Assembly (NCBI GenBank): GCA_000091205.1
Contig: AP006499.2
Source of the DNA: Cyanidioschyzon merolae
Taxonomy: Eukaryota
DNA: 64,000 nt
Direction: 5' to 3' (one strand)
A model generated the notes under the pieces. The model worked only from the letters and a program-made list of their open reading frames with translations. It was not told the origin of the DNA and ran no database searches. Numbering within the stretch: position 1 is the stretch's first letter; each line of letters starts with the position of its first letter. A program made the translations under genes and the position numbers. This document shows positions 1,068 through 60,102 of the stretch, in pieces.

Positions 1068-4000
1068 TTACAGTACCGGAATAGTTGACTGCTTCTGGGC
1101 AGCATCCCATTGGCGATAAAGTTGATGCCATCGACGCAAACGCCGTCGACGAGCTCGCTCGCTTGCGTGACGTTGGTGGCTGGCAGCGGCCTCCATGTGC
1201 GATGATTCCCCTGAGAAAGAATCTTGCTTACGTCGTAGCAACTCGTCACATGTTTCTCCAATATGGACCAAACGATTCGTGTTGAGAGACATTTTCGATT
1301 CGAGTCCGTTCGAAATCAGAACTTGAAGCATGAGCTGCCTTTTCCAGGTTTCGTAAAGCGATATTCGATCGGGATCCGATGACGTAGCGTGGCCAAGTCG
1401 GCGACACCAGGACGCAAAGGATCGCTCCAGCGGCACGTTCACAACAGAACGCTCGAAGGCGTAGAGTTTGCGGGCATCAACCGCCATCGGCAACATATCC
1501 AGCGTGTGTTGGTGCTGGTGTTGTCCTTGCCAAGCAAAGAATCCTAGATAGCTGGCCGCCGCTTCCGCAGCTGCAGCGGTATCGCGTCGACGTGGAATGC
1601 CCTCATCGCTTGTCAGCAGGGTTACAGTGAGGATTGCTGGAGTCGACGCCAGCGTGGCTCGATCCTCCTTGGGTTCGAGGTCACTGGCGCCTGACCCCAC
1701 TGGCCCCGGAGCGTCCTGCACCTGGAAGCGATAGAGATTCCCACCGCGCTCATCGCGTAGAATTTGTAGCGCTTTGATACAGTACGACACCTCTGCAATA
1801 CATAGAGCTTGCGCTTCCGCGTCGGTAACGCCATCACCATCAGGGACCAGACCGCGCACGAGATCCTGCTCTTGAGCAAAATACAAGGCAACGAGTCTCG
1901 ACTGAGCCGTGTTGTACGCTTGTTTCACTAACTTGAATAGCACCTTGTCTAAGGTAAAGAGCACGTACGATTCAGGCCCCAGTACGCGGCGGCAGTAGTC
2001 TTCATACTCTTGGCTATCGATGGCATTACTCAGGTACCTCCGGAGCATGTCCATATATTCTCTGTATATGTCCGAGGGGGCGCGCAGCGTCGCCTCCGCC
2101 CTCGCTTCACCTTCGGGATTGTAGAGGGAGTCGGAGATGGATTTGAGGTCCATGGCCGCCTCAGGCTGACGTTGCTCGTTCATTCGAGCTGATCGTTGCC
2201 TCTCGTACTGGGACTGCGCCATCTGTCGAGCGGCGGCCAGACGCTGGAATGCGATTTCGTAGAGCCGCATGAGAATATACAGGGACTCGTCGGCGAAAAG
2301 AACCGAGTCGTTCCGATAGCGCATCCTCTCGACTCTTGCATTGCGCTTCGGACCCGGCACAGAAGTCGACCCGGTTTCCGCCTTGATCGCTGGTGCCTCT
2401 CCGGGTCGCACACTGGGCACCTCCTCTGACAACGACAGAATGACTGGATCGAGGCCATTCCCGCCATCCCGTGTGTCCATCTCAGCACAGAAGTTTTCAT
2501 CAGGCGATGACTTTCGCGAGACGCTGTCGGAGGCCGCCGGCGAGTCCCCCGCTGAGCGCTCATCTGCAGCACGAGCCAGCTCATTCCGCAAAAGGCCACT
2601 CACATCCGCAAGCTCCGAATCCGTCTCTTCGCGAACGACGGGCGCAGTGCACTCGCCAGGAGTCTCGACTGCGCGAACACCAGGATCATGCAAATTGATG
2701 CCAAAGAATCTCCCGAAAAGCTCCGCATAGAACTGCAAGAGATGCGCACATTCCATCGGCCCGTACTCTAGATGAGACAAAAACGACACCAGTGCATATA
2801 GGTCCTGATGCGCCTTCTTCAGACGGAGGCGGAATCGCAAGCACGGAGGCTCTAGCGCCGACACCACCGCAAAGGGGTCGCGTTCAGGCGCCGCCGCTGA
2901 ATCGCCACACGCAGCGCTCAGTGATGCGTGCGCGCACTCGAACGTGCCCCCGTGGACGCACTGCAAAGCAACTTGCCGAGCGCGCCAACTGTTTTCGAAC
3001 TCACGGCTGAGCGCAGGGTGTCCGAAACCGCAGCCGAAAGCGACACAATCACAGGAGCCAGCCATGATATTCGCGGCAAAGACAGCGACCGTGATCGCTT
3101 CCATGAGCGTCCGGACCTCTGCGATGTCGTGGATGTCCTGGAGGAGGCCACGGACGCTGATTGTGCGCTTATCACTCTGTCTGAAATAAAAGCTTCGGTG
3201 ATCCAGGCTCTTGAAATAGTTGCGTTCACAGATTTCTCTCCAGAGTTTGTTCATTTCGACGCGAGCTCTTCGCCATTCCTCGTCCTTCTGTTTGAGGCGG
3301 TTCAGGACAATTGGAACTGCCACACTTGGTTGCATCTTCACATGCATGACCATTTCTGGGCCGTGTGCTCCATAGACTCGCTCTATGGCCCGGTAATGCA
3401 CTGCACTGAGGGCGTGCTCGGCGAGCATATGTTTTGCCTTTTCTTCGTCGCTCATATGGGCGATCACCATGGCCAGAGGTTCAAGCTTATGAATCGTTGC
3501 CGCATTCGTCTCGATGACCATATCCAGCTCGTAGCGATCGTCTTCACATCGAAAGAGATTGTCTTCAAACTGATTGCGACGCATGTGCTTGAACGAGCCC
3601 TCCTCGCTCCCGGTCGGCACTGACACCCAGATATCGTTCAGTACCTGTTTCTCAAGCTCACCGCGACCACTACATGGCATGGATTGAAATTCGGAAGGTA
3701 TGCGTTTGTAGCTGGTGTCACAACGTTCCCGGGACTCTGCTGCCGCCTCGCTGAGCGACTTGTAGCGCCAGAGCCCGTCAACCGGGGGGGCGGTCGCCGA
3801 CGGTGGAGCACGGCCCTCTAGAATCGCCAGCGCTGCCTCGACGCCCGACATTGCACTTTCTGCATCGGTTGGATGCTTGGACCTGCGTGCTGGGGCACAA
3901 GCATCCAAGAACGTGCGGAAGGCCTCGCTTAAAATATGCCTGTGTCCGAAAAGTTCATCAGCAAGGCTCATCAGCTCTGTTCTGCCGATAATCTCCTGGT

Positions 4001-5723
4001 TGTAAAGACTCAGGCACTTGATGAACTCATGAAATTGATGTGCTTCCATGCGCTCCCGCAATTTTTCGAAAAAGAGAAGCTCGGCTCGAGCTCCGTAAGA
4101 AATGGGCGAAAGTCCAGACAACGCAGTAGCAGCCGTTGAAGACGCGTGCGGCGCTGTCGCAATCGTCTGTTCCAGGTGCTGTGGAACGAGTGCAGCCTGG
4201 AGCGGAGCATCACGCCCGTCGAGGCTAACTCCCTGCGCAGTTTCGCTGCGTCGACTCCTTTTGGTTCGCTTTGTGGGTCCTCCCGTCGCACCAAGGTTGC
4301 TCGCCGCTCGTTTTGCCCAAGTTATTTGTCTTGCGCTCTCGATTTCATCCTCCACAGAATCTGGAAGAAAACTCTTGAACTCTTCCAGGAGATCTGGATG
4401 ACCGCGAAAGATCTGAGAGACTTCATCCAGCACGCTGAATTTGTCCTCTCCGTCGCGCTGATAGGCCTGCAGAATGTTCAGAAACCTCTGGTAGATTGCT
4501 GGTTGGTTCTGAAAACGCTGCTTGACTTTGTTCACGTATTGGATAGCGTGGTCGAATTCCTCATTGTTGAACGTGGACAAGCTTGGTGGTACCCCAACGG
4601 CTTGTGCGTTCACGACAGCTGCACTGTCGGCGACGGTATCCGCAACACGTTGCGGGACGTGCAGCTGTTTGGGTTCCTGCGAAGGCTGAAACGCTCGAAA
4701 CGCTTCAGGTCCAGCTCTAATGTGGGCGTTTCCCATGGCAGAAGACATTTCAGCGACTCTGTATGCGTCTGGAACAGCATGCTGACTTGGACGAGTGATT
4801 GCGCCTGGATATGGAGCGCGAGCACGGGTATCCTCTGCAGCGACCGTAATCTTCGCATCATCCCTTTCATTTGCAGGGCCGGGTGTTTCTGCGTGAACGG
4901 GTGCTGCATCCAAGCAGTCTGAGAGCTCAATTTTGTATCCCGCCGGCAGAAAAGTGTTGAAGCCAAGCACAAGGTTGGGATAGCCGCGAAAAAGACGCGT
5001 AACTTGCTCAATTACGCCTGGTGTATCGATTGTTTGCGCCTTGAATTCTTTCATGATGTCCAGGAATTTTGCATAGATTCGCGGCCGATCCTCGAACTGG
5101 GCCTTCACCTGCTCTAAATAAGCCAGAGCGTCCTCGACTCTCAAAGCTCGCGCCTGCGAGCCTTCCTCGGTCTCAGCAGGTTGATTCATTCGGTCAGCAG
5201 CTGCACTGGTCTCCTCGGACTGGGGATCGAGCTTAAGCACCGTGCGTGCGGCACCAGCTCGTTCTGTGCTGTCGCTCTCGCGTTTCGAGCTACTATTTTT
5301 ACCGCTCACCGTCGGTTCAAGGTTTTGCGTAACCTGTTTCTCTGTAAACTCTAAGTGCGTTTTGTGCTGGCTCGAAGTAGGCGATATAGGCTGGGTTGCT
5401 GTCTCCCGAACGTGCGAATGCGCACCCTCAACTAGCGTCGCCAGTTCATCTTCTATTGTTCGTGCACCTTCTCTCGGCATGGTGTCCGCCGTGACATCTC
5501 TGGGCACGTTTTCGGTCTCCGAACGTAGCGCTTCAGCGCGTTCGCTACGATCATCTGTGCTTTGCAAAATCATCCCGGCCTCTTCGCTGCTTCCGAGACC
5601 AGCAGATCCCTGCGGACGCTGTGGTTCTGCCTCAACGCGCAGAGGCACTGTTTGCGTTTCTGGTGGCACCAGTGATGCCTCACCCGAGATCCGCTCCAGT
5701 AATCTATCTTCAGACTCCTCCAT
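1068..5723 (-). CDS. SIN3: Sin3-family transcriptional co-repressor (paired amphipathic helix protein), encoded as one uninterrupted ORF
   Basis: Two clear PAH repeats ([32 protein letters not shown]...; [32 protein letters not shown]...). Sin3 HDAC-interaction domain (...[66 protein letters not shown]...) plus a C-terminal Sin3-C-like region. 1551 aa with no in-frame stop. Confidence 0.8.
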   Translation of the reverse strand: [1551 protein letters not shown]

Positions 5724-5889
5724 CTATTGTGGCGAGTTGGCTTTTGCCCAGGTTGCGACCAAGGCAAGCTCACGACTATATTTCCACAGCAGTGCTGGCT
5801 TTCCTCGAGCGAGAGCAACCTGCGCGCAGCAGTCTCAGATCCGACTCCGCTTCCCCGGGGCGCGTAGCTTCTAGAGTGGTGAAAACATT

Positions 5890-6170
5890 ATTAACACAAT
5901 CCGTGACCTGTATTGAAATTGTGCAAGCTAACCAGATTCAAGTAACGGGTAATAAATATAAAAATAAATCTTATCGTCGTCATTCAGGACGTCCAGGAGG
6001 GATGAAGATTCGTTATTTTTATCAAATAGGTGGAAAAAGAGCATTGGAACATGCAATTAAAGGTATGCTTCCAAAAGGTGTGAAAGGTCGCCAATTGTGG
6101 CGAAAAATTCGTATAGAAGCTTAGAAAGAGTTATGTATGCCATAGGAAAACGTAAATGTGCCATCCCCGG
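5890..6170 (+). pseudogene. rpl13: Plastid-derived DNA fragment (NUPT): the 3' two-thirds of rpl13 followed by the first ~12 codons of rps9, then decayed
   Basis: AT-rich island (~35% GC) in ~52% GC surroundings. Translation ...VTGNKYKNKSYRRHSGRPGGMKIRYF...AIKGMLPKGVKGRQLWRKIRI matches bacterial/plastid L13 (VTGNK..Y..H.G.PGG.K......AVKGMLPK...GR....KLKVY). A stop is followed 8 nt later by MYAIGKRKCAI.., matching the S9 N-terminus (Y.TGRRK.AiA), and then similarity is lost. The rplM-rpsI order is bacterial/plastid-like. Confidence 0.55.
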
Positions 6171-7127
6171 GGAAGCAACCAGCCTGTATCGTGTACCAAG
6201 CTGCAATCCATATTTGTGCATATTAATTCTAAACATTCCACGATTGAACTGGATCCAGTGCAGCCTCGAATCGCGATGCCACCCTGGCGGCTAACCTGCT
6301 GCGCGTACCTGGCAGCTAAAAATGATTCTTGTTCCTCTAGTTGCTTTCAACTTAATTCAGTTCCAACCCCGCTGTATAAAATCGAATGATTTTTCTCAGT
6401 GTAGAGCACGAGATCGAGGTCACTATGTAATTTATTGTGTACATCTTAGATGAATAGCCTGTAGGATATATTCTTTAGTAAACAATCCCTGCAGGACTGT
6501 ATTTATCCTTCAGGTCAGTCATACAACAGTACTCAGACGGCTCAGGAACACTGAAAGAAAGGAGTATATGCGCTCCGCGCCAAGTACCGATATTCTCAAA
6601 GCATGGTTGCGGTGAATTGTAGGAATTGGACCCGTTGATCGTTTTTTACGGAAAGCAAAAGCGAAGATAATAGCGAACACGGGCGTCACTTTTCTCACGA
6701 GCTTGTTCGGGTGGCGCTGAAAACAGAGGTATACTGCCGGAGAAAAGAGCCCAGTCTCATGCACGGCAATCTCCCGCTGAAATCGCCTCAGCAGAACTCC
6801 TGGAACGTTGCGATCTGTAAGAAGTAGAGGAACTCCGGATCGTTTTCTCTGTCAATCAGACTTTATTAGGAAAATACGGTCGGTGCGTGTATGGGTATTC
6901 GCAGAGCAGGCAGCCGGTTGTATGTAAGATGAAACTCACAGAGAACGAGGATATTATCATCTATTCTAGCTGCGGTGGATTTACTTGGCGGCCTCGGTTT
7001 CGCTCGTAGAAGAGAATCATGCAACAGCACCTGCTACGTCGAACCATTGAAGACTTTCCCCTGACGTCTCACGACGGCCTTCTATTGGACACCGTAGCAT
7101 TGCAACATTCCCCTTGCGTTCGAGCTC

Positions 7128-7790
7128 TTGCCGATCCTGTCTGGGGTAGAGCTGCTTTTCAATCCTTCATACACTCCCTGGAAAAATCCAATCGAAGGAA
7201 TGTTTTCTATTGTGAAACGTACTGATCGCTCTACTGGACGAATCGCTGAAGATCTCAGCACATGGTTACACCGAGGCACATGTCGCATGTCGTCCGCAAG
7301 TCCTCCTCGCTCCAGGAAGGTCCTCACCTCAGGGCCTAAAGATTTGCATTCATTTTCAAAAACCAAAAATCTCAGGGATGAGCTGGGGTGCACGCTTCAC
7401 AAGGTCGAGATGGAAAGAAGGCAACGGATCGCCTCGGCGATGGAAATGGACAGAGACATCACAGAGCTGCAAGTGGCATTGAGGGCGCGCATTCGAGGAC
7501 TCCTTGCACCGATGAGTATCACGAGTGAGAAGAAATGCATGGAGTTCGCGAACCGAGATTTCAGCGCCATCGTCAATATCAGATGATGTGCGGTGCTGAA
7601 GACAAGACCCGAGGAGCTGACGTGATCCACTTTTTGGGGCAGTATATCAGGCTCTAAGTGTACAGGGATAGAAACTGAACCTGACAGCAGGATATCGGTT
7701 GAAAAAGGCTGGGGCATCCGCGAATGGGCGAATATATACCATCCATAGGCGTGAAATGTGTATCCTTTTTCCTGCAGTATGTATTCATGC
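7128..7790 (+). mobile_element. 3'-terminal remnant of a TnpB/Fanzor-like (OMEGA-type RuvC nuclease) element, copy 1, degenerate
   Basis: ORF end ...DELGCTLHKVEMERRQR...RGLLAPMSITSEKKCMEFANRDFSAIVNIR is homologous to the zinc-finger and RuvC-III ('NRDFNAAINI') region of the 29.5-31.7 kb copy. The downstream ~220 nt is conserved with the other copies (..gatccacttttt...tgaacctgacagcagg...ttgaaaaaggctgggg...). Confidence 0.5.
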
Positions 7791-10700
7791 ATTCATCACG
7801 ATTAGGTGGATCGAGTGGCGACCTCTCGTTCGTACGCTGAACGCGCGTCCGAACAGCAGCTTTGCTGGAACAGGGGCAGTGCTTTGTTGTCGAAAACAGG
7901 CCGAAAACCAAGCCGCGGCTTGTTGCCAGTCAGCATTTTCCCGAGAACGATTCCCATTGATCGACATCGTAAATTTGAATCCGAGATGCCTCCTGCATGA
8001 AGCTTGCTACGCACTGGGTTTTGCTCCACTCGATACAAACCTGCGCAATCTTTCCACGAATGCTGAAGTCCCAGTTTCGGAGCAACGAGTTGTACTATGA
8101 ATAGAGCAAACTTGCAACCAGTTCATGATTTCGTAAACTTGCACTAGGGCGGCTGGCAAGAAACACTGGCTTTTCGATACGGCGCATGCTGAGCGATATC
8201 AGCCCGATATTGAAATACGGTATTTTCTTCTCGTGAAATGCAGCAGGCAGCCCGCGCAGAAGGAACCTGAGCCGAAGCATCCCAGAAGTGCCTTTCGGGG
8301 AGAAAGCAGCAAAGTACATGACAAATTTCTACGCAGATCATTATGCGTATGGCCTGGCCACATCCAGCGGGCATCTTTGTGAAACAGCACTTTCATAAGA
8401 CGCTGCTGTGAAAAGCCCTTGAATGCATCACTATTTCCAAGTTCTGCGCGTGCGCCGCCACCGATACAGCATCTTCGGCTCCTTTATGCATGCACGCAGA
8501 TACATCCACGTCAAATTCAAATGGAACCGGGCACATTCACCTAACACGGATGTTTACTCTAAAGTTTGGGTCCGGTCCCTTTGCCATCAACACCAGCATT
8601 TGCGGCATTTTTACGCGACTGCTTCCTCTTGCTTTCTCTCACCGCCGGCTTTAAATATGCAGGTCTTTCCATTTCTCCAGCCGCGTTGCCAGAATTCGAT
8701 TGATCTGGATGACAGCATCAAGGTCCTGATTATGATGCTTCCGGCAGCTGCCGACGCAATTAAAGCAGATGCGGAAGTTGCTATCTACACCCTGCTTGCC
8801 ATTTTCATCTTCTTCTTACATCGCCTCGGTGTGCCCATTGCAGTAGATGCACTTGGCTGCGGTATAAAATTCCCATGGTTACACCACATATTCTCCTCAT
8901 AGGGCGGCCCTCTGAAGCGTGAACGTTTACTTCATCGCTTGCAGTAGGTCGATGAAGAGTACTTGAGGCTCCCCTCGGTTGCGTTCTCCGTTTCCGATCC
9001 CGATATCATGCCCCAAGATCATAAGCTTTTCCGGGGCAATCACATAAACGAGCTATCTGTCCGATGCGTGAACGCGCACTGTTCCATTCGATAAAAGATT
9101 TGTGGAATTCGATGTTGTCCATGGTGGAACAAATGCTAGAAGGGAAATTCGCGCAAGCGATCGAATCGAGAAATTTCGATCCGTTTACGCTCCATTCGTG
9201 CAAATTGTTGAAGCACTGTCGACTAGAAGCGATCGCTGCTATGATGCGAGTCCGAGTCCAAGAGCCTTTTCTATGGAAACAGAAGATATGGAATCATCTG
9301 AAAGATATCCATGTAGAGGTATGACGCTGGTGTGGACTGCATTTTCGTCGATAGCCACAAAAAGATGAATGATTCGTCTTCCGGAAGAAATTGATTATAT
9401 GGAATGAAATGCTCAGTATGTGTTCGGCGTGAGCTCGTGAAGAAATCGTCATGGAAGGTGACCGAGTGTTTTATTTCGTCCATAGAGCAGCGCGGATTGC
9501 TGCGCCCAAGATTTGCGTTGAAGTAGAAAAAAAATTCTTCGAAATTCCTTATTTGACTATGCAAGAGGTAATAAAAAGATAAGAAAGAATTCTTTTACAC
9601 ATGGATTGGATGATCAAATTGTTTATTCGAAGCACCGTCGTTTGAGGGTGTCACGAATACTCTTTATAACGGTGACGTACCAAAATTCCAGGGGCAGAGT
9701 GTCGACAGTGCTACTCCAAGAGAACGATCGCAAACCCCAAACTGCTTATGCATCCATCAGCCCTTGGTGCTGTGCATCGAATGTTAAGGCTGTACATCTA
9801 TAAAGAAGATCGACAAAGTCGACATGCATAAAGCGAGTGCGCGGCTCAGTTTCACATTTAAATTTCACTTCAGGATTATATCAACTCTAGAGGGCGTACT
9901 GGGCATTCGATAATTGTCCAAAAACGCAGCGCGTCACCTCTGCCAAGTTGTGAAATTCCATGAAGTACAGTATGCGTTCCGTCATGCTGTCGCTTCCACT
10001 AGAAGCACCCGCGGTAACATTCCGTGGGAAAGGATGCGCGGCTGCGCATTGCATGCAAAACAACTTGGTTGTGAGAGAAGAGATCGCTGTTTGAAATATC
10101 CATCACTCTGCATAGCCAACACGGATGCAAAGCACAAGATCTCCAGCGAATCTTCTCGTATAGAGTGTTCTTCTGTCATGTCGCCGTCATTAACAAGAAG
10201 AGCCCTTGAATCCACATATCTTTGGAGCCCAGTAGAGATGCGCAGCGCTCTCGAGCGCAGTATCTGGCGAGGATATCTCTCCTCATCCTGGGTTCGGGGC
10301 TCTTTCGCAAGCTCCAGACGAGACTCTCACTCACGAATGTAGAATGACTTAGCCTCATCGTAGTTCATCACTTGCCACGGAAAATCGTTCCCTGCGTATA
10401 CATGCGACGTTGAAACTTTGCTGGATTAACGAACAGTACCACACCAGCGACACGTGCCAGTTGGGAATCGAGTGCGATCACTCCTGGCGGCTGAGATTCT
10501 TCTCGACGGTCGTCTTCACCGTTTCAGCGCAACGCCGACACTGAGTAATGAGCGATTTCCTCGAAATTTCGCTTGAGACAGAGCTGCTGAAAGCTCAGGA
10601 AGCACGAGAAGTTTCCGGACGTTGGTCGAGATCTTCAAGTCACGATGCAGAAACCGCTTGCCGGAATGCGTAAAGTTGGAATCACAGCCAAGAAAGCATC

Positions 10701-13101
10701 TCATCTTCATCCATGATGGCATCTGACGGTGAACCGGCGTACCGAATAATATCTCGTACACCCAGTTCAGTTTCAATGTATTTTTTTCGACCTGTTCCCG
10801 CAGGCGCCCATGCACATGTTGCCTGGATGCCGTAAAAAACTGATCGATGAGACTCACATAGAATCGATTCTAGCACTTGTCATGCGCTCTCGTTGAAGGC
10901 GTGGGAGTGAAGCCTTTTAACGGTCCAGCACGTTCATAATAATCGGATACCATCAAACGACACGATTTCTCGGTCATATTCTTTCCCAAGTCATTGAAGA
11001 AGTTGGCAAATGCGCGCTGCCCTGCCCTGTACAATTAAAACCGTTGGCGGCTCGAGCACGTTTCCATATGCGCCCAACAGGAATCGTACGCATGAGCCAC
11101 TTGGACGCATTCGCATTCTCTGACTGGAGAAAGCAAAGCATTGTCCCTGCTCGACAAATTGCCAAGGGCGTTGAGACTGGTCCTGAAGCTGCCATTCCGC
11201 CCATTGGTATTCCTAATAGCGCGCATCATTCTCGAGCCCAGATGGTATCGACCTCTGGGAAATTGCTTTTCTTGATCTACTTTCTGTTCATGTATTTAAC
11301 TTGGCCCTCTTTATTTAGAGGTACCCTGGCAGCCATGGCGGTCTTAAATCGGCGATCTATGCCCCTGAAATGATCGTTCTATTCATCTTCTCTAAAGATT
11401 AAAAACGAGTCATGTTGCTCGACTCAGTCCTAGGTTTCACGAGTTTCTTGATGTCCTCCCAGCTAAATTCTCTGCCGGTCTCCGTGGTCCATGTAAAAGC
11501 TTTCCGTTTCACCCCTGTAGACGAGAAACCTTGCACGAGCTCCGCCGATGCTCTTCCCGATATTGTTGGAATGCGTCGTGGTTTCTCGCAGAGGGCAACT
11601 CTATCTTCACCTTTCTCGCTCCATGGCTGGCCAGCATGAACGTTGTTGCTCAGCTTCACATCCGTTTTCCCCGCAGAATCCAGACGCACCGTCCAGACGC
11701 ACTGCTCCGAGCGTGTTACCGAAACTTGCCCTCTCTATTCATGTATCCTCTATTTCTTAACTAAATTTTCGCTTTCTGCTCCGTCGCGAGCATGCCCATG
11801 AACCGAAGCGCGCCTTTTCGCTTCCTCTCTCGCATGAGTTGAGGAGCAACGCAGCAGTCGTGGTGTTTTGAAAGCAGAGAACGATTTTGCGAAGACCGCT
11901 ATCACGGATGCGAATGACTCTTCTGTATCATAGATCATATAAATTGCGTTTGACGGTAGAGTAGACACCTTTGACTGGACTGGGCCAGGGAGAGTAAATA
12001 CGCACGAAGAGAAGCTCAAATCTTGTCCCAGCAGTGTCCCGCTAACCGTTTTGAGTAATATGAAGCAGTGTAATCTAGGAACAGGAAACAGGTATGTGGG
12101 AAGGAGCCGCCCCGAGTTATGCCTCGAGAAATGATGAGCTATTTAATGATTCATTCAGTTTGACCATTCGATTCATACACCGCCGAGGCTGATAATGGCG
12201 GATTACTCGCTTTTCTAGTCTTCAGAAATAGTTATTTGCCTCTTGCTGAGTGCCCGTGTAGAGTTCTCGCATTTCTCTCGAATGCAGTCTCATCTAGTGA
12301 TTCGAAAACCCATCTCCAATCTAATGAGCGCTCCTATTTTAGTACCAATTCTACACCATGCTGCTCAGCGCGCGATGGTTTCCAGTAGAAGCGCGCGTTT
12401 TGCTTTATACATCCACGTCTCTTCGCCACCGTCCGTTCCAACGATGCGAGAAGCTCATTTCCTGTCGATTTTTCAATGTTATTTCTTAGGGAACGTATGG
12501 AGTGGCGTGAATCGGCTACGGGGCAGCCTTGCACATAGTGATCGGATGGTTCTGTTTCGTCGACGCGACCTCCGGGATAAAAGCTAAGATATGGATGGTC
12601 CATCCCCTTGTTGATCCATTGAACGACTAACCTCGTCGAGTAAGTTTTTATTTCTCGCCAGCTAATATTGACAGTATAAAGCCTTTCCATAACCTTTCCC
12701 TAATCTACAGGATACAATACTTTCGTTAAATACCCGCTAGAAGAGCAAACATAACCAGTAAGGTTGCGGTGATCCAGATAGTCCAGAATTCACTGCACTG
12801 AGTACAACGCACATGAAACCAACGCACACAAACCAAGGACAGTTGCATTCTCGCCAAACTGCGCAGCATTCTCAGGCTGATGACTGCCAAATAGAATATA
12901 GGCACGAGAGCAACCGATATGGAACACTGCTTTCCATGGTAGATCGAGAGGTCGGTGTCGTGCACCTGAACAAGCAGCCAGCCTTGGGTGTGAATCCACC
13001 CCTAGGGATGCACGCCCAGAACTGTATCGTCGAAACAAGACGCGTGCCTTGAGTTCGGGAAGCCCAGTTTCTCGCCTATACTTGTTAGGAACTGCAGTTT
13101 C

Positions 13102-19399: not shown

Positions 19400-19997
19400 A
19401 TGCCGGGGTTTGCTGTGTCGGCGTCTATGGCGTGCACGCACTCGCAGCAATAAGTACACATGCGGGAGCTTTTGTATCGCCAGTAAAATGGACAACATTT
19501 CATGATCATAGAGGGAAAATATATACCTTCTCACAGACGCTTCCCAGCCTTTTTCAATCAGTTGCCTGCTATCGGTTTCAGTGTTTATCCCCGCACGCGT
19601 CGAGCCTACGAGGCTATCCCAAGAAGTTGGATCGCTCCAGCTCCTTGGGTCTCGTCTTCAGTGCGACACACCTTCTGATATTAATGGCGGCGCTGACGTC
19701 TCGGTGCAAGAACTCCACGCGTGCATTGACGCTGGTTAAACTCGCCACTGCAAGGATTGCTGGAAATCGTGCCCTCTGTGTAACTACAGTCTCGTCATCG
19801 TCCCGTCTCGTAAACACCTTTCCTCGCCTGTCTCCTCTTTTTTCTTCTTCGTCACTTGCTCTGCTTCGCTCAATATTCGGCGAGAAGAGAATTTTTTCCG
19901 TTTCCTTCAGGCAGCCAACGATGACGGCCTTCCAGGATCCGGGACTTCCATGCCCATGCTTTGTCCTTGGATTTTTTATTTCTTCAAATGAACGCAC
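19400..19997 (-). mobile_element. 3'-terminal remnant of a TnpB/Fanzor-like element, copy 2, highly degenerate
   Basis: Minus-strand translation ...VEFLHRDVSAAINIRRCVALKTRPKELERSNFLG (RuvC-III-like). Conserved non-coding tail on the minus strand (...tgaaaccgatagcaggcaactgattgaaaaaggctgggaagcgtctg...) shared with copies at 7.6 kb, 31.7 kb and 38.6 kb. Confidence 0.45.
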
Positions 19998-20208
19998 TTG
20001 GGGTCCATCTGCGATAAACCGCGAAAAAGCATTTGCTTACACGCACCTGGGGTCGGAATATCATTGAGGTCAAAGACTAGAAGCAGAATCCTCTGGGTAC
20101 TTACGCGGGGCGTCGTCCCTCTGGCGAACTTGCGCTCGGAGAGGCGCGCGGATTGTTTATGCAGATTCTCGCGTTTCAACGCATATCAAAAAGGTTTCCG
20201 CAGGCCTC

Positions 20209-26880: not shown

Positions 26881-29530
26881 ATTTACTTGTGTCGATGTGT
26901 AGAACAGGTGAGCAGTCCAAAGAGCACACAGCATTGGATGGGTGCGATAGCCATATGGCTATGCTGATGAAGTCTGTGACGAGGTCCCTCTGCTTAATCG
27001 CTGAGAAACTTTTCTCGTCCGATACAGTGCCTTGCATGGGTTTCGGATGTTCGGCTTGAACGCTGTTTCCGTCAAAACGCCGCACGGGTGCAACCGCACG
27101 AAACCTCTCCCAGCCTTTAAACATCTAGGGAGCACCCCCTTTGGATTCTACGCTTCTACCAGCGAGCAAGCAAGAGAGATTTTTGCTGATGATTCAGAGG
27201 CCGTCAGAATAATTAGAAGGGTCTTCCTTAACGTTTACCCGAAAGGCTGTAGCACGCCAGCTCGACAGGAGTCTTCAAAAAAGCTCAAAGTGTTGACAGT
27301 ACGTGAGCGAAGAGCAACTGCACTCATGCAAACGTCTACCCCTACACCGCATGGAGACTTTCCAGTATGCGGGATTCTTGGATACAGCATCCTCCAAACC
27401 AGTGGGAAAATGAATTTTACTTAACGCGTCCTTGAGCCGCCGCCCGCGAGGGTGCTGTAAAGCTGCGCTGCCTCTGTACGACGTGCACAGACCCGCGCCT
27501 CGCACCCGAGAGAGCCCCCACTGGAGACTAGGCTGCTGGAGAGCCGCGTGCTCGATCAAGCCAATATTCCACAGGCGTTTCCATGACTAAAGCTGGCTGA
27601 GCGAGGAAATGCCCGTGGGTGAGGTGAATTCTCTGTTCTGAGCATTGAGAGTACGTCCACATCAGTGGAAACTTTTAGAAGCTTTCATCTAAATGAAATA
27701 ATTAGTGCATTTACCTCATCGGGCTGTGCCCGACTCATGAAATGACTAAGCGTTTGAACTAGACTGTCTCATTTCCGCACCAATGAAATGGCGCTTTTTT
27801 CCCGCGGAGCTGTTTGTTCACTTACGTTGTAGCTGTATATCAACGAATCCAATCATCACTATCCAAAAGCTGAGTTGCAGTTGGATGCTGAGGAAGAAAT
27901 CACTGTAGCAATCGAGGCCTCCGTAAGTTAGACCGACCCCACCCGTGTGTCAGAATAAAACGGAACGTCGCACTGCTCGCTTTTCCCATGCCTTTCTAAT
28001 TTTAGCCCAATCATTTCTTAGATGCGCATCCTCCGCACTCAAACTAAAATAATAAAAGTTTACAGGTTCACTCGTGGTTTTTTTGGATTCTCGTTCGTTT
28101 TTCCGTGGTAGCTTGTTCGACTCTTTGTTGCTGGAATGCGTTTCTTTGTCGAAATCATAATGATTCACGACGCCATTGAACAAGGATTCGTAAAGTACCC
28201 GATTATATTATCCAGTTGATACGTCCAAGATTCCATTTTTCTCCTTTCTTTGCGTCTAGTACGATGAAACAGCGCATTCTTCAAGTGTTTGACCTTTCTG
28301 CTTCAAGACAGCTGGAGCGCGTAGCAACTTGCACCGCTGGATTGACGACGACGAAGAAAATTCGACATCGTCCCTTGAATAGCGTTTCGTAAACGCACGC
28401 CAAACGCTCACTGAACCAATCACAGCAAGTAATCGATGCGGTTCGAAAAGCAAGTCCTTCCCTCTTGATCGCCATCGACGAAACGGGATTCCGCCGCAAT
28501 TATAAGCTATCTCTCACGGGACCCGCTCCCAGAGGCACCCATCTCATTTTCCGCGCGGAAAAGGTTCTTGGACTAGAACTAGAGTCGTCGCTGCGATCGC
28601 TTCCACTCGGGATTCCGTCACCGCTTTGAGCCTGGGGGCGTACACGGATCGAGATCTCTCGAGCGCTTTCACAACCTGGAGCTTCCTTCTGGTACTTGTT
28701 TCAGCATGGTCAACATAGCGTTCCGTGAATCCTCTATCGAATAGAACAGCGAGCACTCGGGCGCGCAGCAGACATAGTACTCGCCAAGTAGTCACCCAGC
28801 TCAAGCACGTCATCGTAGAGTTCGCCGTCGGACCCGGAAACGGAGGAGCGAACGGACAGGACCCTTTTCTGGCTGTCAAATTGGCATGTGCCGAACGATG
28901 AAGAAAGGGTTCATGATCTGCAGGGCGACCCTTTGAGGAACAGTTTTCGGGTATATAGGGGAACACTTGACCACAATCAGATGTCATCGCCGCGATGAGC
29001 GCACCGCGACTTTACGCGAGGAAGACGCAAATGGCAAGCAAAGCGTAGATCGCATCTCCCTTTCGAGCATTAGATGCGTGAGCAGCAGCCGGAAGCAGTG
29101 AAATGGTGGCTTTGACACTGCCATCAACATACTTCTACTTCTGAAAACGGAGCTAGAGGGACAAGAGAATTCTGCGTTGCTACAGGCGCATATGAGAGAG
29201 ACAAGGGAAGTAGTCAAACATCATGCCCGCCAAGACTGGTATTGACGAAAGTGAGAAGCGACCCAAAGCCTAGTCTTTTCTCCCGAGTTAGAGGGTCGGT
29301 CCTCGTTTGTTCAGAAATGAGTGTAGATCTGCCTCCACGTTGGGGGCCTATTAATGAAATGATTCATAATCCGCGTCCTCCTGCTGGCAAACCTGCTCTT
29401 TCTACTTATGGTCTATCACCTCAATTTAGTTCCAATCTCAGGTGAGCGTCATCGAATGCTTTTTCGCAGTTTTCAGCAGGAGCATTGGAGTGCATTCATT
29501 TTGAAGAAATGAATAATCCAAGGTGAAGCT

Positions 29531-31800
29531 ATGGATATGCAGGACAGAGATCCTGTTCACCAAGTGTCGCCGGCTGCCAGAGAAAAGCAAAAAGCAGTGT
29601 CTAGTCCAGAGGAAAAGGAGAGGACAAGAAAGAAACGGCAGGTGGCCCGAAGTCAATGGCCGCAAGAAAGACGAATGTACGACGATACGGTGGTGATAGC
29701 CTGTCTTTTCGGACATATCACGGATACGTACGAGGAAAAATTGCGAGACGCCATCAGAAACCGTGTCGATTCGTACTCCATGAGTACTAGAAAGGCGTCG
29801 TCAGGGCTAATGCATTTGGTGATGAAGATGAACGAAAACGTGACGCACATGGAAACAGTCGCGGTTCCGGACGAGTTTTTCGACAAGACCTTTATTCGTA
29901 ACCTAATGCTTGGCACAGGCGAAACACGGAGAGAAAATAGCGGGTTCACGCCCTCCACGAAAATTATGCCGAACTCCGCTTCGAGGGTACTCGAAACAGG
30001 GGTGACCAGGATATTTACGCATGCGGAGCGATGAAGTATCTCACGAACCTGAAGAACCATTTGACGATGAACCTCGAACGTTCCATGATACGCGCCGTGG
30101 TTGCACTCTACTCGGGCCTGTCTCGCAAAGGACTGCGGGCGATTATCAATGGCATCACGAAGGATCGCAAGCATGAAGATGAGATCGAATTCGTCGACAA
30201 GAAGACGTCACGCAGGAGCACAAATGAAGCGTCTGTAATCCAAGGGGTTATAAAAGAGCGCCGTACAGTGTTGGGGCTGGCGAATCCAGTAGAAGAGGTA
30301 TCAGATATGAAAAAAATGAAGAGAGACACTATCGCCTCGTCCTGCGATATTTCGTGTTTTTGGACCAAGAGGTCGAACGCAAGAAGGAGATGAAGCTGAG
30401 TGAGCAAAAAATGAAGATTGGGAGAGACGGAAGGCTGCCCTGACGGGGAAGCGCTTCAACGTCGATCCGATATGTAACGTCAAGTCATACTTTGTGGGTA
30501 TCGATTCAAGAGTCCTCCATGGAATCATGAAGGAGATCAGTCCGGAGTTCAATGTAAGGAAGATAGAGTTCACTGGTGAAACAAGTGAGACGTACTGGAA
30601 AAACATCTTCGATATCAAACATCTCAAAACGAGCAAGCAAAAGGTATTTACTGGGATGATTGAAACCGATGGAGTAGCCTCGTGTGTGCACTATCGGCGG
30701 TTGAAGAAAGATCGGCCAGTCCCTTCGTCGGCTGCGCCCGTTACGAAGGATGAAGAAAACAATGAGGAGGATCCTGCGATGCAGGAGGTGCAGGATAACG
30801 ACCTTGTCTTTGACATGACGAAGGATGAAGAAAAGAAGAAGGCGGATCCTGCGATGCAGAAAACGCAGGATAACGACTTTGCCGTCGGCGTGGACCCTGC
30901 GAATACGAATGTCATAAGTATCGCAGTACCTAAGCGTGCGGAAAACGGTACTGACGGTAATTTACGTCAGAAAGACATGCGTCTGTTGAGATTCTCGAGA
31001 GCGAGATTCTATTGGGAATCGGGAATAATGAATGCGAGGAAGAAAATCGACACTTAGAATGCAGGAATGAATAATCACCTGGAAGCTTTGAGCGAGGTGA
31101 CTAGCCGAGGAGCGTACTATGAAGCCTTTCGGAAATTCATGGAAGTTCGTGTTGCCCACTGGGATGCGCTGTGGGAAGAGTATACTAAGCCCCGGTGGGC
31201 TCTTTTGCGAATGAATCTATACGGTGAGAGGCAGCGGGCGTTCGCGAATCTTTTCAATCAGTTGAGCGCCCTCAAAGAGGATCAAAGTCAGAGGCTGGTA
31301 GTGGCATACGGAGCACGGCGATGGAAGACCAAAAAAGGGTATACGCCAGCTCCAACGACAAGAACGTACAAGGATTCCGCAAGGCGTTTCGTCACGATAC
31401 CTCTAGATGAGTTTCGAACATTGCATACACACCATGAACTGGGGTGTACATTTCAGAGAGTGGAGATAGAAAAGTGCCAGAGGAGCCCTGAGGATATAAA
31501 AAAGTATGGACCGCTGACGGAAGAGCAAATGGAAAGGATTTCGAAAGTTCGTGGACTACTTGCATTAGTAAGTAAAACCAGTGATGGTAAGAAACGTATG
31601 GAGTATGTGAACCGAGATTTTAATGCCGCTATCAATATTAGGGAATGTGCGGTGCTGGAGAATAGGCCTCCAAAGTAGACAAGAGAGAACTTTATTGGAC
31701 AACCTCTCAAAGTGGAACTATATGAGAGAAAGTTGGAAGCAGTGGTGGATGCCCGGTCCGAAAAGACGGGGAGGCGTCTGCACGTCAGCTGGAGAGGATT
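29531..31800 (+). mobile_element. Near-full-length TnpB/Fanzor-like RuvC-nuclease gene (OMEGA-type), disrupted. ORF pieces are 29531..30034, 30031..30393, 30494..31057 and 31067..31678; likely a pseudogene, or a gene with short introns.
   Basis: RuvC-I-like ...FAVGVDPANTNVISIAV... Then ...GYTPAPTTRTYKDSARRFVTIPLDEFRTLHTHHELGCTFQRVEIEKCQ... (the TnpB 'DPAYTSQxCxxCG' region with a zinc finger). RuvC-III ...RMEYVNRDFNAAINIRECAVL... An in-frame TAG at 31055-31057 separates the last two pieces in the same frame. Protein-level similarity to copy 4 continues past the stop at 31676-31678 (TRENFIGQPLKVELYERKL vs TRVNFVGQPLRIELYNDKL). Confidence 0.55.
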
Positions 31801-31836
31801 TGTCTAAGGCGCGCTGATCGCCACTACTGTCCACCG

Positions 31837-31870
31837 CCGGCGAGCACGCGCTCGTGCGCGTGCTCGCCGG
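31837..31870. repeat. Perfect GC-rich palindrome / hairpin (15-bp stem, 4-nt loop)
   Basis: ccggcgagcacgcgc-tcgt-gcgcgtgctcgccgg. The two arms are exact reverse complements. It lies ~40 nt past the conserved 3' segment of the Fanzor-like copy and ~90 nt upstream of the PPR ORF. Confidence 0.8.
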
Positions 31871-34802: not shown

Positions 34803-36043
34803 AGCACCCGCCGTAGCTCGGTTGCAAGGGACTCCACCCCCGCCCGGTCGACCGCTCGCCAATCGTCCGGCCGCATGCAGCGTCACTGGCGGACCCAAGT
34901 ACCAAACGCCCCGTGCGAAAGGCACAGCGCCATCGCCGATGGCCCGGGGGCCGCTGCGCCGGCGCACTGACACCCAAACAAGATGCGTCCCGCCTTTACG
35001 CTCCATGATTGATGAATCTAGCCTGACCTTCCCGGATGCGCGCATGCTCTGGCGAGCAACAGCGGTATACGCCGTCAGCTCCATCCGTGTGCCATCGCCA
35101 GCCGCAGCTTTCGCCGCTCGCGCGCGCACGCACGAGCATGGCTGCGGACGCACACGCACGCCATGCGCATCTCAGCTATCATAGGCACAGGGAATGAACG
35201 TCGCTGGTGCGGCCGCGCGCTACCATATCGTGCAGCCGCATTGCAAATCAAGTCGCACACGCATCACCCGATACATGCGACGTCTGGCGCCGCTGCACGC
35301 TGCCCACAAATCATCGCAACATGATCGGAACTTGCCAGCGCCGGTGAATCTGCATGCAGCGCGCCACAGTCCAGATATGAGTACGAAGCGGGACTTTCGC
35401 GCTCTGTATGGTCGATCCCAACTGTAGCGTACAGCACGTCAACTGGCGGTCCACAGAACGGCGCATCGATTCCGGCTTCGTTACTTTGCAAAACGCTACA
35501 AGCGTCTGCGCGGTTGAGTCGCTCCTGCTGCGCGGACGTTACTGCATATGCCCCTGTTGCGTCTTTCTGAGACTGCATAGTGTGTGCGTAGACGCACGCA
35601 GGCGCACATCGCGGGCGTTGTCCATCCGGTCGCTCTTCAGCATTGCATTTCAGTAGCATGTGCGCCGCACATCAAACATGAATCTATGCGTGCGCATCGA
35701 GCGCGGCTTCCTCGGAGCCCAGCTTCCGCTGCAACGGAACACGCCGCAGCTGTGGGCAGAGGCGCGCTCATCGCCAGTGATGAGCGTACATGTGTCGAGC
35801 TGTTATTCGAGCGCACACAAGGAGAACTTGCATGCCGAGAATTTTCGCTCAGGGTGCCCTGAGATGGTGCTCGTGTGGGGTCATCAGGCGGACCCAGCAG
35901 TTCCTCCGTTCCATCAAGAGCCGAGTGAATAGCGGAGACTACAAGCGCTACCGAGTGACCCATGAGGCATCGCATGCTCCAGGCGCAGACGCTAGCAGTC
36001 GGGGCGCGTGCAGCGCAAGTGTCATATCAGGAGAGATGGTTTC
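34803..36043. repeat. Inverted-repeat arm A (~1.24 kb), partner of 39800..41037
   Basis: Reverse-complement identity is seen through identical or near-identical ORF translations on opposite strands (e.g. 35637..35975- equals 39868..40206+; 34788..35159- equals 40684..41073+), with only a few substitutions. The boundaries were mapped by loss of complementarity. Confidence 0.8.
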
Positions 36044-38538: not shown

Positions 38539-38824
38539 TTACGGTGCCCTGGAGGTGTCGAGTCCTGCAACTATGCACCTGAGACGCAGCTGAACGAAGC
38601 CCAAACGTTCTGCAGAATCTGAGTAAATTAATACCGGCGTGCAGACGCATACCAACTTTTTTTGACCGTCTCCATGCTATCGGTTTCAACTTGTCATTGT
38701 ACAGCTCGATCCTGAGAGGTTGCCCCACAAAGTTGACTCTTGTCAGCTCCTTGGGTCTCATTTTCAGCACCGCACATTTTCTGATATTGATGATGGCATG
38801 GAAGTCTCGGTTCACGAACTCCAT
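38400..38824 (-). mobile_element. 3'-terminal remnant of a TnpB/Fanzor-like element, copy 4
   Basis: Minus-strand ORF MEFVNRDFHAIINIRKCAVLKMRPKELTRVNFVGQPLRIELYNDKLKPIAWRRSKKVGMRLH.. (RuvC-III plus a conserved tail). The downstream nucleotides ...agttgaaaccgatagcatggagacggtcaaaaaaagttggtatgcgtctgcacgc... match the tails of copies 1-3. Confidence 0.5.
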
Positions 38825-39799
38825 GCGTTTATTGCCTCTGGATCAACGCACTATTGCTAGAGTTCCTCGAACTCGTACCCACTGTCCCACTACAGTCTCG
38901 TCATCCTCCCGTTGGGCATACATCTTTTGCTCAGTTGGCTCCCCTATTTTTCTTCGTCTTCGTTATTTCCTCTTCTTCGCTGCATGGTTGGCGAGAACGA
39001 GATGTTCCGTTTATTACTGCAGTCATCGATGACGGCCCTCAAGGATTCGCAAATTCCAGATCCATAACATTCTCACAGATTTTTACTTTTGGAAAAGAAC
39101 GCACTTAGAACGTATTTACTGAAACCTGGGAAAAAGCATTTGCTTACGCTCATCTGCGGACGGAACACAGATGAGGTGCAAGCCTCGAAATGACGCGATC
39201 GCAAATTTGCACAGTCCATTCGGTTTGGAAAGTCTTGATTAGAAAGTCTTCTGCTCTACTAGAACGAATCCGGATATGCTTGGGAGGACGCTGAGTTTAT
39301 TAAAGTCAAAAGTGGCCAGAAGTGCCCCGTTTCTTCACGCGAAGCATGGACCGCAGAACTACTACAAAGGAAACCGCTGTCGTCGGCTGGGTCGACACAC
39401 GCGCAAGGGTGGGTACGTCGTAGACCACGCAAACAAGGTCCCTGACTTCAGAATACCGCAAATTCCAGAAGATTTTCCACTGAAACCATATGTTGCAGTT
39501 GGTTCGTAAAGGTTTCTGGGGCTACGTTTGGACACCTTTCGTCGTGGCGAGGGAAAAATCTGCAGGGAGTTTCAAATAACGCTGCAATATGGACGACTAT
39601 GATGAGAAGACGCTTCTTTCCCCAACTGAGGCGCAACGGTTTTTACACCACTGCCAATATGACGATTAAGGCAAGTACTTACCTCTGAGAGTCCTGATGC
39701 AACCCTGTCAAAAACATATAGCGCAAAAGCACGAATAAGGTCACGGTCCTTCTGTGAGTGGCAGTATTTCACAACGTTGAGTTTTACTCGAAGCAGCTG

Positions 39800-50319: not shown

Positions 50320-50562
50320 TATCCAACAGTTGCCTCTGTCGAGAAAGAACGATCACCACACAACCCGAGGGCTTCTAGCGAGAATCTCCGGGCATTTTAC
50401 AGCGCACATGGAGCTGTTGCCGATCGCGGGAGCTCTGCGCCTGCACGCCGCTGCTGTGAGCTCGACGCTCGAAAAGCGATCGTGCCTTCCGAGGCGTCGC
50501 GCGTCACCACAAAATCGGTGGGTGCGCTCGAGCCAGCAACCTCGCCGATGCTGCAGCGGGCG

Positions 50563-51950: not shown

Positions 51951-52155
51951 GTTCTAACGCGGCCTCAAAACCTTTTTCTTGATCGCGGGACACCTACTTA
52001 GCTGGAACATTGTATGCAAAATCGCTCATGTTTGTTAATACAGAGACCCCGGAGGCACATTCACATGCACGTTCGGGCCCACATTCTCATTCGAAAAAAC
52101 TAACATACAAGTAAGTTCCACAATGCCAAATCTGGCGTGGTTTATGGCGGTACAA

Positions 52156-53922: not shown

Positions 53923-54029
53923 GGTCAGCTAAACCCGTCTCCAGTAAAGCAAGGGAAACCAGCTGTGCACGCACGCCTTTTATCGAGGGACTGCCGTTTT
54001 CGAAATCGCGTTGTATGGATCGCTAACTG

Positions 54030-59912: not shown

Positions 59913-60102
59913 TTGCTACGGAAATGTTTTGAACTGTTTCACGAATCATTGTTATTTATTTTCAAAAGTAACTCATGAAACTCTCGCAAAGAATTGAAGC
60001 GCATGTGGCCATCCTCCTGTAAGGCGCTTAGCCGTTTAAAAACCATTAATATGGCCCACGCAGATCGTCTTAGACCTATATTAATTTCAGATGGAGGAGA
60101 TC

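Follow-up and report, generated by a model that had tools for sequence, protein, structure and literature searches.

The DNA analysed here (the window) is a stretch of 64,000 nucleotides from Cyanidioschyzon merolae (contig AP006499.2 of assembly GCA_000091205.1). It carries a 1551-aa SIN3 open reading frame (ORF) at 1068-5723(-), which matches the C. merolae 10D protein BAM82035.1 exactly, and four loci, numbered here copies 1 to 4 (Table 1), that share nucleotide similarity around the RuvC-III codons of a Fanzor/TnpB-type nuclease. An earlier note on this DNA had regarded the segment 3' of these codons (7560-7800 in copy 1) as a conserved non-coding module and a candidate scaffold of an omega-RNA, the guide RNA of such nucleases. 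The repeats almost certainly belong, as decayed paralogous copies, to CMe-1, a transposon family of C. merolae of the Fanzor1 type (eukaryotic TnpB). The block is mostly the C-terminal ~43 codons of the nuclease, followed by a 65-90-nt 3' untranslated region (UTR) up to the element's right end. In CMe-1A, represented in the window by copy 3, the last ~155-200 nt form a sense-strand fold ending in a long hairpin with co-varying arms, the foot of which is the element boundary. CMe-1 3' ends made of a coding tail and a 3' UTR, with a possible guide RNA in CMe-1A, are the probable explanation of these observations as a whole.

CMe-1A was described in C. merolae by Bao & Jurka 2013 (Mob DNA 4:12, PMC3627910) as a family of ~150 copies, each ~80% identical to a 3169-bp consensus, which encodes one 734-aa protein, has no terminal inverted repeats (TIRs) and whose target site duplications (TSDs) were left undetermined. 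That paper predates omega-RNA and mentions neither the hairpin, nor the hypervariable codon, nor an RNA. The element has therefore been catalogued since 2013, and a guide RNA made from it is plausible by analogy, at the stage of a candidate; no literature linking a C. merolae Fanzor to an RNA was found. The CMe-1A consensus was taken from the supplement of PMC3627910 and compared with the window by blastn and tblastn. Copy 3 is 88% identical to it over 31288-31842 (555 nt, blastn) and spans residues 1-734 of the published protein, which places it in the same family of the same organism. Copies 1 and 4 are 73-74% identical to the consensus over ~235 nt, and copy 2 falls under the blastn threshold. 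With the CMe-1 protein, tblastn aligned residues ~605-700 to copy 1 (53% identity, 7359-7643), residues 647-727 to copy 4 (65%) and residues 640-705 to copy 2 (47%). By the criterion of ~80% identity, copies 1, 2 and 4 would count as diverged relatives and not as CMe-1A proper. With only 47-65% protein identity and a different 3' UTR, they form a diverged subfamily that is absent from the text of PMC3627910.

The Fanzor1 nature of the family became visible with a diverse profile, as Pfam, PDB searched by single sequence and a shallow profile all gave no match. An exhaustive search yielded 1467 representatives. Homologues of the copy 3 query reach 78% identity to it. A family profile of 70 relatives, including P0006 (67% identical to this query), matched the structures of PpFz1 (9cf0, E 2.3e-21), SpuFz1 (8gkh, E 7e-13) and GtFz1 (9cer, E 8e-6), in agreement with the Fanzor/TnpB assignment made earlier. 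The DPG, DEFRT and NRD motifs align between the profile and the solved Fanzor1 structures, and the split RuvC motif D...[TS][TS]...RD is present as GADPGNTN, VDEFRTSYT and NRDFNAAINI, aligned with PpFz1 and SpuFz1. Copy 3 retains GVDPANTN, LDEFRTL and NRDFNAAINI, while copies 1, 2 and 4 retain only the RD motif. Where a C4 zinc finger (TNB/OrfB_Zn_ribbon) is expected, between RuvC-II and RuvC-III, CMe-1 has THHELGC..EKC and no second CxxC; CMe-1-like proteins had no Pfam match, and 24 of the 70 distant relatives gave weak, sub-threshold matches to PF07282 / Cas12f1-like_TNB. An AlphaFold2 model built from a shallow alignment of 16 sequences had a mean predicted local distance difference test (pLDDT) score of 31.5, too low for a fold search.

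Self-blastn of the window gave significant similarity among the four loci, spanning the NRDF..INI codons and beyond: 7481-7774 versus 19776-19481 (70%, E 5e-30), 7530-7712 versus 38833-38652 (76%, E 7e-28), 19534-20082 versus 38642-39189 (70% over 556 nt, E 3e-57) and 31546-31709 versus 38873-38713 (73%, E 4e-18). The similarity reported by the earlier note is thus real, as are the unrelated flanks, the differing stop codons (TGA in copy 1, TAG in copy 3, read-through in copy 4) and the string 'atatata..atgaaatgt' common to copies 1 and 2, which three further relatives (L030b, L061b and the L086 paralogue) have as well. Copies 1, 2 and 4 contain the core motifs TGAAACCGATAGCA, AAAAAGGCTGG and GCGTCTG as quoted, while those of copy 3 are diverged. 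The block is not a separate module, since the similarity is continuous and about equally high on either side of the RuvC-III motif. Nor do the four copies make up the whole set, as a fifth, more diverged Fanzor1-like fragment with the degenerate RuvC-III motif HRDLKISTNV is present; it belongs probably to a different, older Fanzor1 family. That the similarity is due to chance, or to a generic repeat unrelated to the nuclease, is hardly conceivable: besides these E-values (4e-18 to 3e-57), the continuity with Fanzor coding sequence and the same position in more than 50 copies stand against it, no point in its support was found, and it was rejected.

Table 1. Positions of the CMe-1-related features (window coordinates, or locus:position for sites in other copies).
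Feature	Position	Strand	Evidence or remark
Copy 1, overall refined extent	~7359-7795	+	
Copy 1, 5'-truncated Fanzor1 pseudogene fragment, about CMe-1 residues 605-680	7359-7586	+	tblastn 53%, translation
Copy 1, RuvC-III codons NRDFSAIVNIR	7551-7583	+	followed by premature TGA 7584-7586
Copy 1, tail, ~last 43 CMe-1 codons with stop and frameshift; core of the flagged block	7587-7712	+	blastn to copies 2 and 4; alignments
Copy 1, subfamily-2 3' UTR GAATATATACC..CCATAGGCGTGAAATGT..GTATGTATT to approximate right end	7713-7795	+	common to copy 2, L030b, L061b and L086 paralogue, then diverges
Copy 2, ~610-nt internal-deletion derivative with several stops	19481-20092	-	blastn 70% over 556 nt with copy 4; translation
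Copy 3, near full-length CMe-1A core with frameshifts and stops	~29398-31870	+	residues 1-734 at 29531-31804 (tblastn)
Copy 3, in-frame TAG at hypervariable 'codon 45' (T-N-G)	31676-31678	+	codon usage in 37 copies
Copy 3, tail TRENFIGQPLKVELYERKLEAVVDARSEKTGRRLHVSWRGFV and conserved stop TAA 31805-31807	31679-31807	+	same frame and end as intact relatives, 734-aa protein
Copy 3, predicted 'domain 1' fold	31740-31829	+	mean z -2.0 in 47 copies
Copy 3, terminal hairpin	31837-31870	+	fold z -5.1 (31740-31870), arm co-variation, conservation drop
Copy 4, internal-deletion derivative like copy 2	~38640-39195	-	tail frame open
Fifth Fanzor1-like fragment (..FLHRDLKISTNVRKL..)	10516-11265	-	tblastn CMe-1 residues 463-700, 31%, E 4e-23
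5' terminus sites of the CMe-1A/TE-N2_CMe composite	L073:1215, L074:1834, L064:2089, L051:2171, L030:1030, L068:2170		

The description of the block as non-coding did not stand. It is in frame in intact relatives and in the published 734-aa CMe-1 protein, which ends in ...RPPELTRENFVGQPLKVELYEKKLEAVVGGRSKKTGRRLHVSWRRFV; intact homologues read through it as ...NRDFNAAINIRRCAVLEKRPPELTRENFVGQPLKVELYEKKLEAVVGGRSKKTGRRLHVSWRRFV to one common stop, and many copies share one stop after SWRRFV. In copy 3 the frame resumes beyond the in-frame TAG and reaches the conserved TAA. Between copy 4 and the CMe-1 consensus, the tail has a nonsynonymous rate (dN) of 0.26 and a synonymous rate (dS) of 0.94 (dN/dS 0.27), compared with 0.13 and 0.90 (dN/dS 0.14) in the upstream codons, and its replacements are conservative (K/R, V/I). 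With this ratio and a dS as upstream, the tail behaves between subfamilies as ordinary coding sequence under purifying selection. Within CMe-1A, tail dN/dS is lowest in the real frame (0.46, versus 0.71 and 1.09 in the wrong frames), so that a weak coding signal remains. The first ~20 tail residues are kept in relatives that are only ~30% identical. Solved Fanzor1 proteins end a few residues past an RPxxFSR motif, which aligns with codons 42-48, and the last ~40 CMe-1 codons are therefore an extension. The tail very probably is, or was, translated. The differing stops and frameshifts of copies 1 to 3 are pseudogene lesions, and it is these that make the tail look non-coding. From 5' to 3', the anatomy is RuvC-III (NRDFNAAINI), ~55 further nuclease codons and the 3' UTR up to the right end, and the loci are alike through descent from one element family and long-term protein-coding selection on the tail.

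Copies 1, 2 and 4 are grouped with L030b, L061b and the copy 1 paralogue beyond SIN3. This subfamily has a 3' UTR (GGTATAnATTT..CCATG..GTGAAATGT..) that lacks a hairpin and bears no relation to the CMe-1A 3' UTR. Its right end, based on five sequences, is reached by the block and lies in copy 1 close to the 7790-7800 proposed earlier. A protein search for further members returned only CMe-1A proteins and copy 4 itself. Copies 2 and 4 are one ~600-nt internal-deletion derivative, in which the 5' UTR and ~55 N-terminal codons are fused to ~90 C-terminal codons and both element ends are retained, including the tail and the subfamily-2 3' UTR. The 5' part of copy 2 is homologous to copy 3 at 29400-29523, and the tail of copy 4 is called as a 105-aa ORF in metagenome annotations. 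These two copies represent an amplified non-autonomous, 'ghost'-like subfamily. Copy 1 is joined directly, at its upstream side, to a remnant of a Tc1/IS630-type DDE_3 transposase (~6900-7230, Pfam E 1e-8). The resulting 1.3-kb composite at 6411-~7795(+), made of this remnant, the last ~130 Fanzor codons and the 3' UTR, is itself repeated: its paralogue, L086:13196-14496, is a 70% identical direct copy beyond the SIN3 and DUF760 genes, outside the window. No empty site for copy 1 was found, and the syntenic, 99%-identical contigs of other strains carry copy 1 too.

The 3' ends of CMe-1A were examined in a scan of metagenome contigs, which gave 80 loci; duplicates were removed and 50 three-prime ends were aligned. 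Contigs syntenic with the window are 99.1-99.8% identical to it, so that they derive from genomes of C. merolae type, in which the loci are paralogous copies. Unless stated otherwise, the constraint and fold statistics refer to 47 other CMe-1A copies and copy 3. Conservation is 0.8-0.9 through the tail and for ~65 nt past the stop, and then drops to background (47 copies), which gives a sharp boundary. The conserved 3' UTR reads TAG GGCGnG TTTCTC GCCACTACTGTA CAC... and nearly every copy ends, over its final 40-55 nt, in a hairpin of 15-25 bp. The hairpin sequences differ, being of the type GTCGTTCGA-CTT-TCGAACGGC in one group and CGTTTTTC-TTTT-GAAAGGCG in another, with several unique variants besides. 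In copy 3, the hairpin has a perfect 15-bp stem (CCGGCGAGCACGCGC / GCGCGTGCTCGCCGG) with the loop TCGT; the similarity of copy 3 to other copies ends at this hairpin, which was therefore taken as the right end. The published CMe-1 consensus ends at ...GAAAGGCG, within the 3' arm of the terminal hairpin, and many copies are alike for ~10-15 nt further. The terminal hairpin of copy 3, the best structural element, is located in the 3' UTR, outside the interval considered in the earlier note.

When the arms of the terminal hairpin were paired with their own partners, the energy was -22.7 kcal/mol, versus -18.8 kcal/mol with arms from other copies, and none of 5000 permutations was as low. On the lower stem alone the own-arm effect was weak (p = 0.013). 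The covariation proposed as a check on an omega-RNA is seen in the terminal hairpin arms and not in stems of the coding tail. In copy 3 (31740-31870) and likewise in L065, the last 131 nt fold with z = -5.1. Over 47 copies, the mean z is -2.2 for the hairpin, -2.0 for the ~100 nt before it (domain 1), -0.7 for the 100 nt further upstream and +0.2 for the flank. The sense fold is stabler than the antisense fold in 47/47 copies (164 G.U pairs versus 13 A/C mismatches), and a modest sense bias persists after composition control (z -2.0 versus -1.3, p = 0.006). In domain 1 of copy 3, CAGTGGTGG (31740-31748) is predicted to pair with CCACTACTG (31821-31829), a part of the near-invariant 3' UTR motif GCCACTACTGTA, with small stems around the stop enclosed; recurrent predicted stems 5' of the hairpin include one between CAGTAGTGG of the tail and the invariant CCACTACTG. 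Mean pair probabilities in domain 1 are 0.3-0.7. A search of Rfam 15 gave nothing at gathering thresholds, and chance-level matches only at E up to 10.

Within CMe-1A, the tail also differs from the codons before it. The dN/dS is 0.16 in codons 1-44 (RuvC-III region) versus 0.46 in codons 46-87 (tail), and dS is about 0.58-0.61 upstream and in codons 1-44 versus about 0.36-0.37 in the tail. Entropies at codon positions 1/2/3 are 0.40/0.31/0.71 over 170 upstream codons versus 0.49/0.46/0.59 in the tail. Codon 45, which has its counterpart in L003-L082, sits between RPPE and TRENF and is located about where solved Fanzor1 proteins end, was compared in 37 copies: it is TAG in 10, TTG in 5, TCG in 5, TGG in 4 and other codons in the rest. 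Its middle base is fully unconstrained (entropy 1.98 bits), and the copies with TAG lie dispersed on a star-like tree. In CMe-1A, the second half of the tail and the 3' UTR, together the last ~155-200 nt, thus carry in part a constraint at the nucleotide level. The earlier reasoning, by which a block that is kept whatever the stop must be constrained as RNA or DNA, therefore has some force for CMe-1A, where the codon periodicity is nearly gone, dS is lower and the structured sense-strand end bears a co-varying hairpin. In the window copies, the differing stops are pseudogene lesions, and between subfamilies the tail behaves as coding sequence.

In the Fanzor and TnpB systems described in PMC10432273, PMC11423790 and PMC10530073, the DNA for the guide RNA stretches from the gene's 3' end through the right end. 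In the SpuFz1 RNA, a scaffold of 75 nt separates the stop from the 3' inverted repeat (IR) and is accompanied by a 14-15-nt guide, the GtFz1 RNA overlaps 17 codons, and Fz1 RNAs share a conserved stem-loop (SL1) and variable stem-loops before the guide (PMC10432273, PMC11423790, PMC10530073). The position pointed out by the earlier note, the 3' end of the element, is indeed where such guides are encoded (PMC10432273, PMC10530073), and the conserved region of CMe-1A spans the ORF end up to its sharp boundary (47 copies). The CMe-1A 3' end fits the Fanzor pattern because of this position, the sharp boundary, the stem-loop abutting the flank and the hint of nucleotide constraint. By analogy with SpuFz1, GtFz1 and ISDra2 TnpB, the last ~155-200 nt would encode the omega-RNA scaffold, the 15-20 nt of flanking DNA past the hairpin would act as guide, with the same DNA also serving as the transposon's cis-acting end. 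We rate the chance that the CMe-1A 3' end makes such a candidate omega-RNA as slightly short of even. Its plausibility is confined to the distal tail and 3' UTR of CMe-1A and does not extend to the copy at 7560-7800. There, the 3' UTR is unrelated, the subfamily is decayed and z is close to zero (0.08 in copy 1, 0.48 in copy 2 and -0.06 in copy 4; range -0.4 to +0.5 with L030b included); any omega-RNA still functional in copies 1, 2 or 4 is very unlikely.

Several observations weigh against a guide RNA in CMe-1A. Its 3' features also fit a DNA-level transposon end, and the arm co-variation, which comes partly from two main hairpin types inherited by descent, could have been preserved at the DNA level. 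Part of the strand bias is due to composition, the sense strand being G-rich, and the entropy differences between upstream codons and tail are only marginally significant (p 0.005-0.05). Stems in the tail and in domain 1 showed no covariation beyond shuffles, and between subfamilies (copy 4 versus consensus) the dS of 0.94 leaves no synonymous constraint in the tail. RNAalifold on MAFFT tail alignments found almost no consensus structure, because register shifts between hairpin types defeat sequence alignment; per-copy folding and the permutation of own and other arms were used instead for this reason. The 3' regions of copies 1, 2 and 4 and of L030b have no fold beyond chance, and an omega-RNA, if present, is not the 'shared core' quoted in the earlier note.

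The original version of the hypothesis, in which the block is a non-coding omega-RNA scaffold in all four copies and the ORF ends at about codon 45, would agree with the end of solved Fanzor1 proteins just past RPxxFSR, with the conservation of sequence 3' of TAG in the 10 of 37 copies having this codon, with the weak codon periodicity of the tail and with stops about twice as common in codons 46-87 (21/53 copies) as in codons 1-44 (9/53). It is nevertheless improbable, as the real frame of the tail has the lowest dN/dS of the three, the ratio between subfamilies is 0.27 with conservative replacements, the first ~20 residues are conserved in distant relatives, many copies have the common stop after SWRRFV, the tail is included in the published consensus ORF and copies 1, 2 and 4 have no fold. 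A different explanation is that a coding tail is followed by a DNA-level transposon end without any guide RNA, the hairpin being a cis transposition signal, like those of Helitron or IS200/IS605-type ends, or an mRNA 3'-end/terminator and the lower synonymous change reflecting cis-acting DNA requirements or sampling noise in 42 codons. Such an end would suit an element without TIRs and with TSDs undetermined (PMC3627910), as expected of hairpin-ended elements, and in Chlamydomonas, Fanzor1 genes are carried by Helitron2 elements that have terminal hairpins (PMC3627910, PMC10530073). Both ends are retained in the deletion derivatives (copies 2 and 4), the tail stems lack covariation, dS between subfamilies is not reduced, and single-stranded DNA hairpins tolerate G.T pairs too. 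Against it, all Fanzor and TnpB nucleases tested to date use an RNA from this position (PMC10432273, PMC11423790, PMC10530073), the sense-strand bias survives composition control, the ends are unlike those of Helitron1 (the 3' end is not CTRR), no inverted repeat links the left and right ends, and a candidate 5'/3' asymmetric repeat of the consensus is not conserved among copies. We consider this explanation distinctly possible, if short of probable. The most elaborate form of the guide-RNA proposal, in which an omega-RNA scaffold lies inside a translated extension of ~43 codons, TAG at codon 45 toggles between a long and a canonical ORF, and the terminal hairpin is a transposon end abutting the guide, seems rather unlikely.

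A candidate guide RNA in CMe-1A would have the same position as the Fanzor1 omega-RNA/fRNA of SpuFz1, GtFz1, PpFz1 and CrFNuc (Saito 2023, PMC10432273; Xu 2024, PMC11423790; Jiang 2023, PMC10530073). As in these systems, the conserved region ends sharply, with variable DNA beyond, and a stem-loop lies directly before the would-be guide. An overlap of the candidate RNA region with the ORF end is also known from GtFz1 (17 aa) and ISDra2 TnpB, although the putative overlap in CMe-1A would be much longer (up to ~43 codons). In SpuFz1 the omega-RNA spans a 30-nt IR, whereas CMe-1A has no terminal inverted repeats; CMe-1A has no sequence or Rfam match to described guide RNAs. Short deletion derivatives that retain the 3' module resemble the ~550-nt 'ghost loci' of S. 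punctatus (PMC10432273). As with the right-end RNA (reRNA) of ISDra2 TnpB, the putative guide region of CMe-1A covers the nuclease ORF's 3' end together with the right end. Like IS200/IS605 elements, CMe-1A has hairpin-containing ends, no TIRs and no determined TSDs. In contrast to these, its host is eukaryotic, its protein is a Fanzor1 and not a TnpB, no TnpA (Y1) gene was found in the element, and no pair of left-end and right-end hairpins was seen.

CMe-1A was also compared with CRe-1/2/3 of Chlamydomonas, which are Helitron2 elements of the non-autonomous kind. Both have Fanzor1 as sole ORF, no TIRs, a 3' hairpin near the end and a high copy number. In CMe-1A, however, the foot of the hairpin coincides with the end and is not 10-30 nt inside, the 3' end is not CTRR, and no conserved asymmetric terminal inverted repeats were found. 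A Helitron-type end, for which 5'-TC...CTRR-3' termini and a hairpin 10-12 nt ahead of the 3' end, or else conserved asymmetric terminal inverted repeats (Helitron2), were required, was rejected, the right end lying at the hairpin foot (often ...GGTG). The 5' end CGATGACAAAACG does follow a T-run. A Helitron2-like asymmetric repeat was rejected as well: the 5' GACAAAACGT of the consensus is the reverse complement of ACGTTTTGTC at the stop, and this 10-nt match is not conserved across copies. No terminal inverted repeats were found between the left and right ends of CMe-1A.

The left side of the elements is heterogeneous. The Fanzor core is preceded by at least five different repeated upstream modules. 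Among them, the 635-bp TE-N2_CMe-like module that the published consensus contains occurs in both orientations. In the composite CMe-1A/TE-N2_CMe module, the 5' terminus (CGATGACAAAACGTTT...) is sharply defined and nearly always follows a T run in the flank (Table 1); the same terminus is found inverted directly upstream of the Fanzor core in L007, L048 and L032. No motif like the target-adjacent motif (TAM) could be derived from the left ends. Just upstream of RuvC-I, a 75-nt (25-codon) acidic tandem repeat (..KDEEKKEADPAMQEVQDNDLVV..) was noticed at 30743-30892 of the window, at L028:4297-4596 and at L004:4284-4508. The number of repeat units differs from element to element; in the proteins compared, it ranges from 1 to at least 5.

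Several other repeats are present in the window. An inverted repeat of 1239 nt (34805-36043 / 39800-41038, 99% identical) has its arms 3.8 kb apart and encloses copy 4. A dispersed family with 65-69% identity is found at 8675-9286, 28558-29158, 54613-54816 and 57434-57637; two of its copies, oppositely oriented, are located one just upstream of copy 3 and the other downstream of copy 1. In the second half of the window, large direct and inverted repeats, 99.8-100% identical, were found at 44803-47621, 50560-51951 and 60056-62874, and at 54028-55394 and 56856-58222; they suggest that segments were recently duplicated or that a repeat family is young. Moreover, an AT-rich insert of 299 nt at 5866-6164, downstream of SIN3, carries coding sequence for the C-terminal part of ribosomal protein L13 (Pfam E 2e-12) and is probably organelle-derived. 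It lies in the loop of a perfect palindrome (CTTCCCCGGGGCGCG..CGCGCCCCGGGGAAG) and is absent from metagenome contigs that are otherwise 99-100% identical. It is either a strain-specific insertion of organelle DNA, of which the species is thought to have very few, or an assembly artefact.

Taken together, these results are mostly a clarification. The apparent non-coding module is decayed C-terminal coding sequence and 3' UTR, and the flagged copy is a dead fragment; the current understanding of OMEGA/Fanzor systems is unchanged. A dual-coding overlap in CMe-1A, if true, would be far longer than the 17-aa overlap of GtFz1, and C. merolae would then carry, or have recently carried, a native RNA-guided nuclease with ~150 guide-bearing loci and deletion 'ghost' derivatives. 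Since this alga is genetically tractable and homologous-recombination proficient and has a tiny genome, it could serve to study in vivo what Fanzor does for its host element. With a defined end, a co-varying hairpin and constraints that seem to overlap, the CMe-1A copies offer a concrete and testable red-algal candidate for a Fanzor1 guide RNA.

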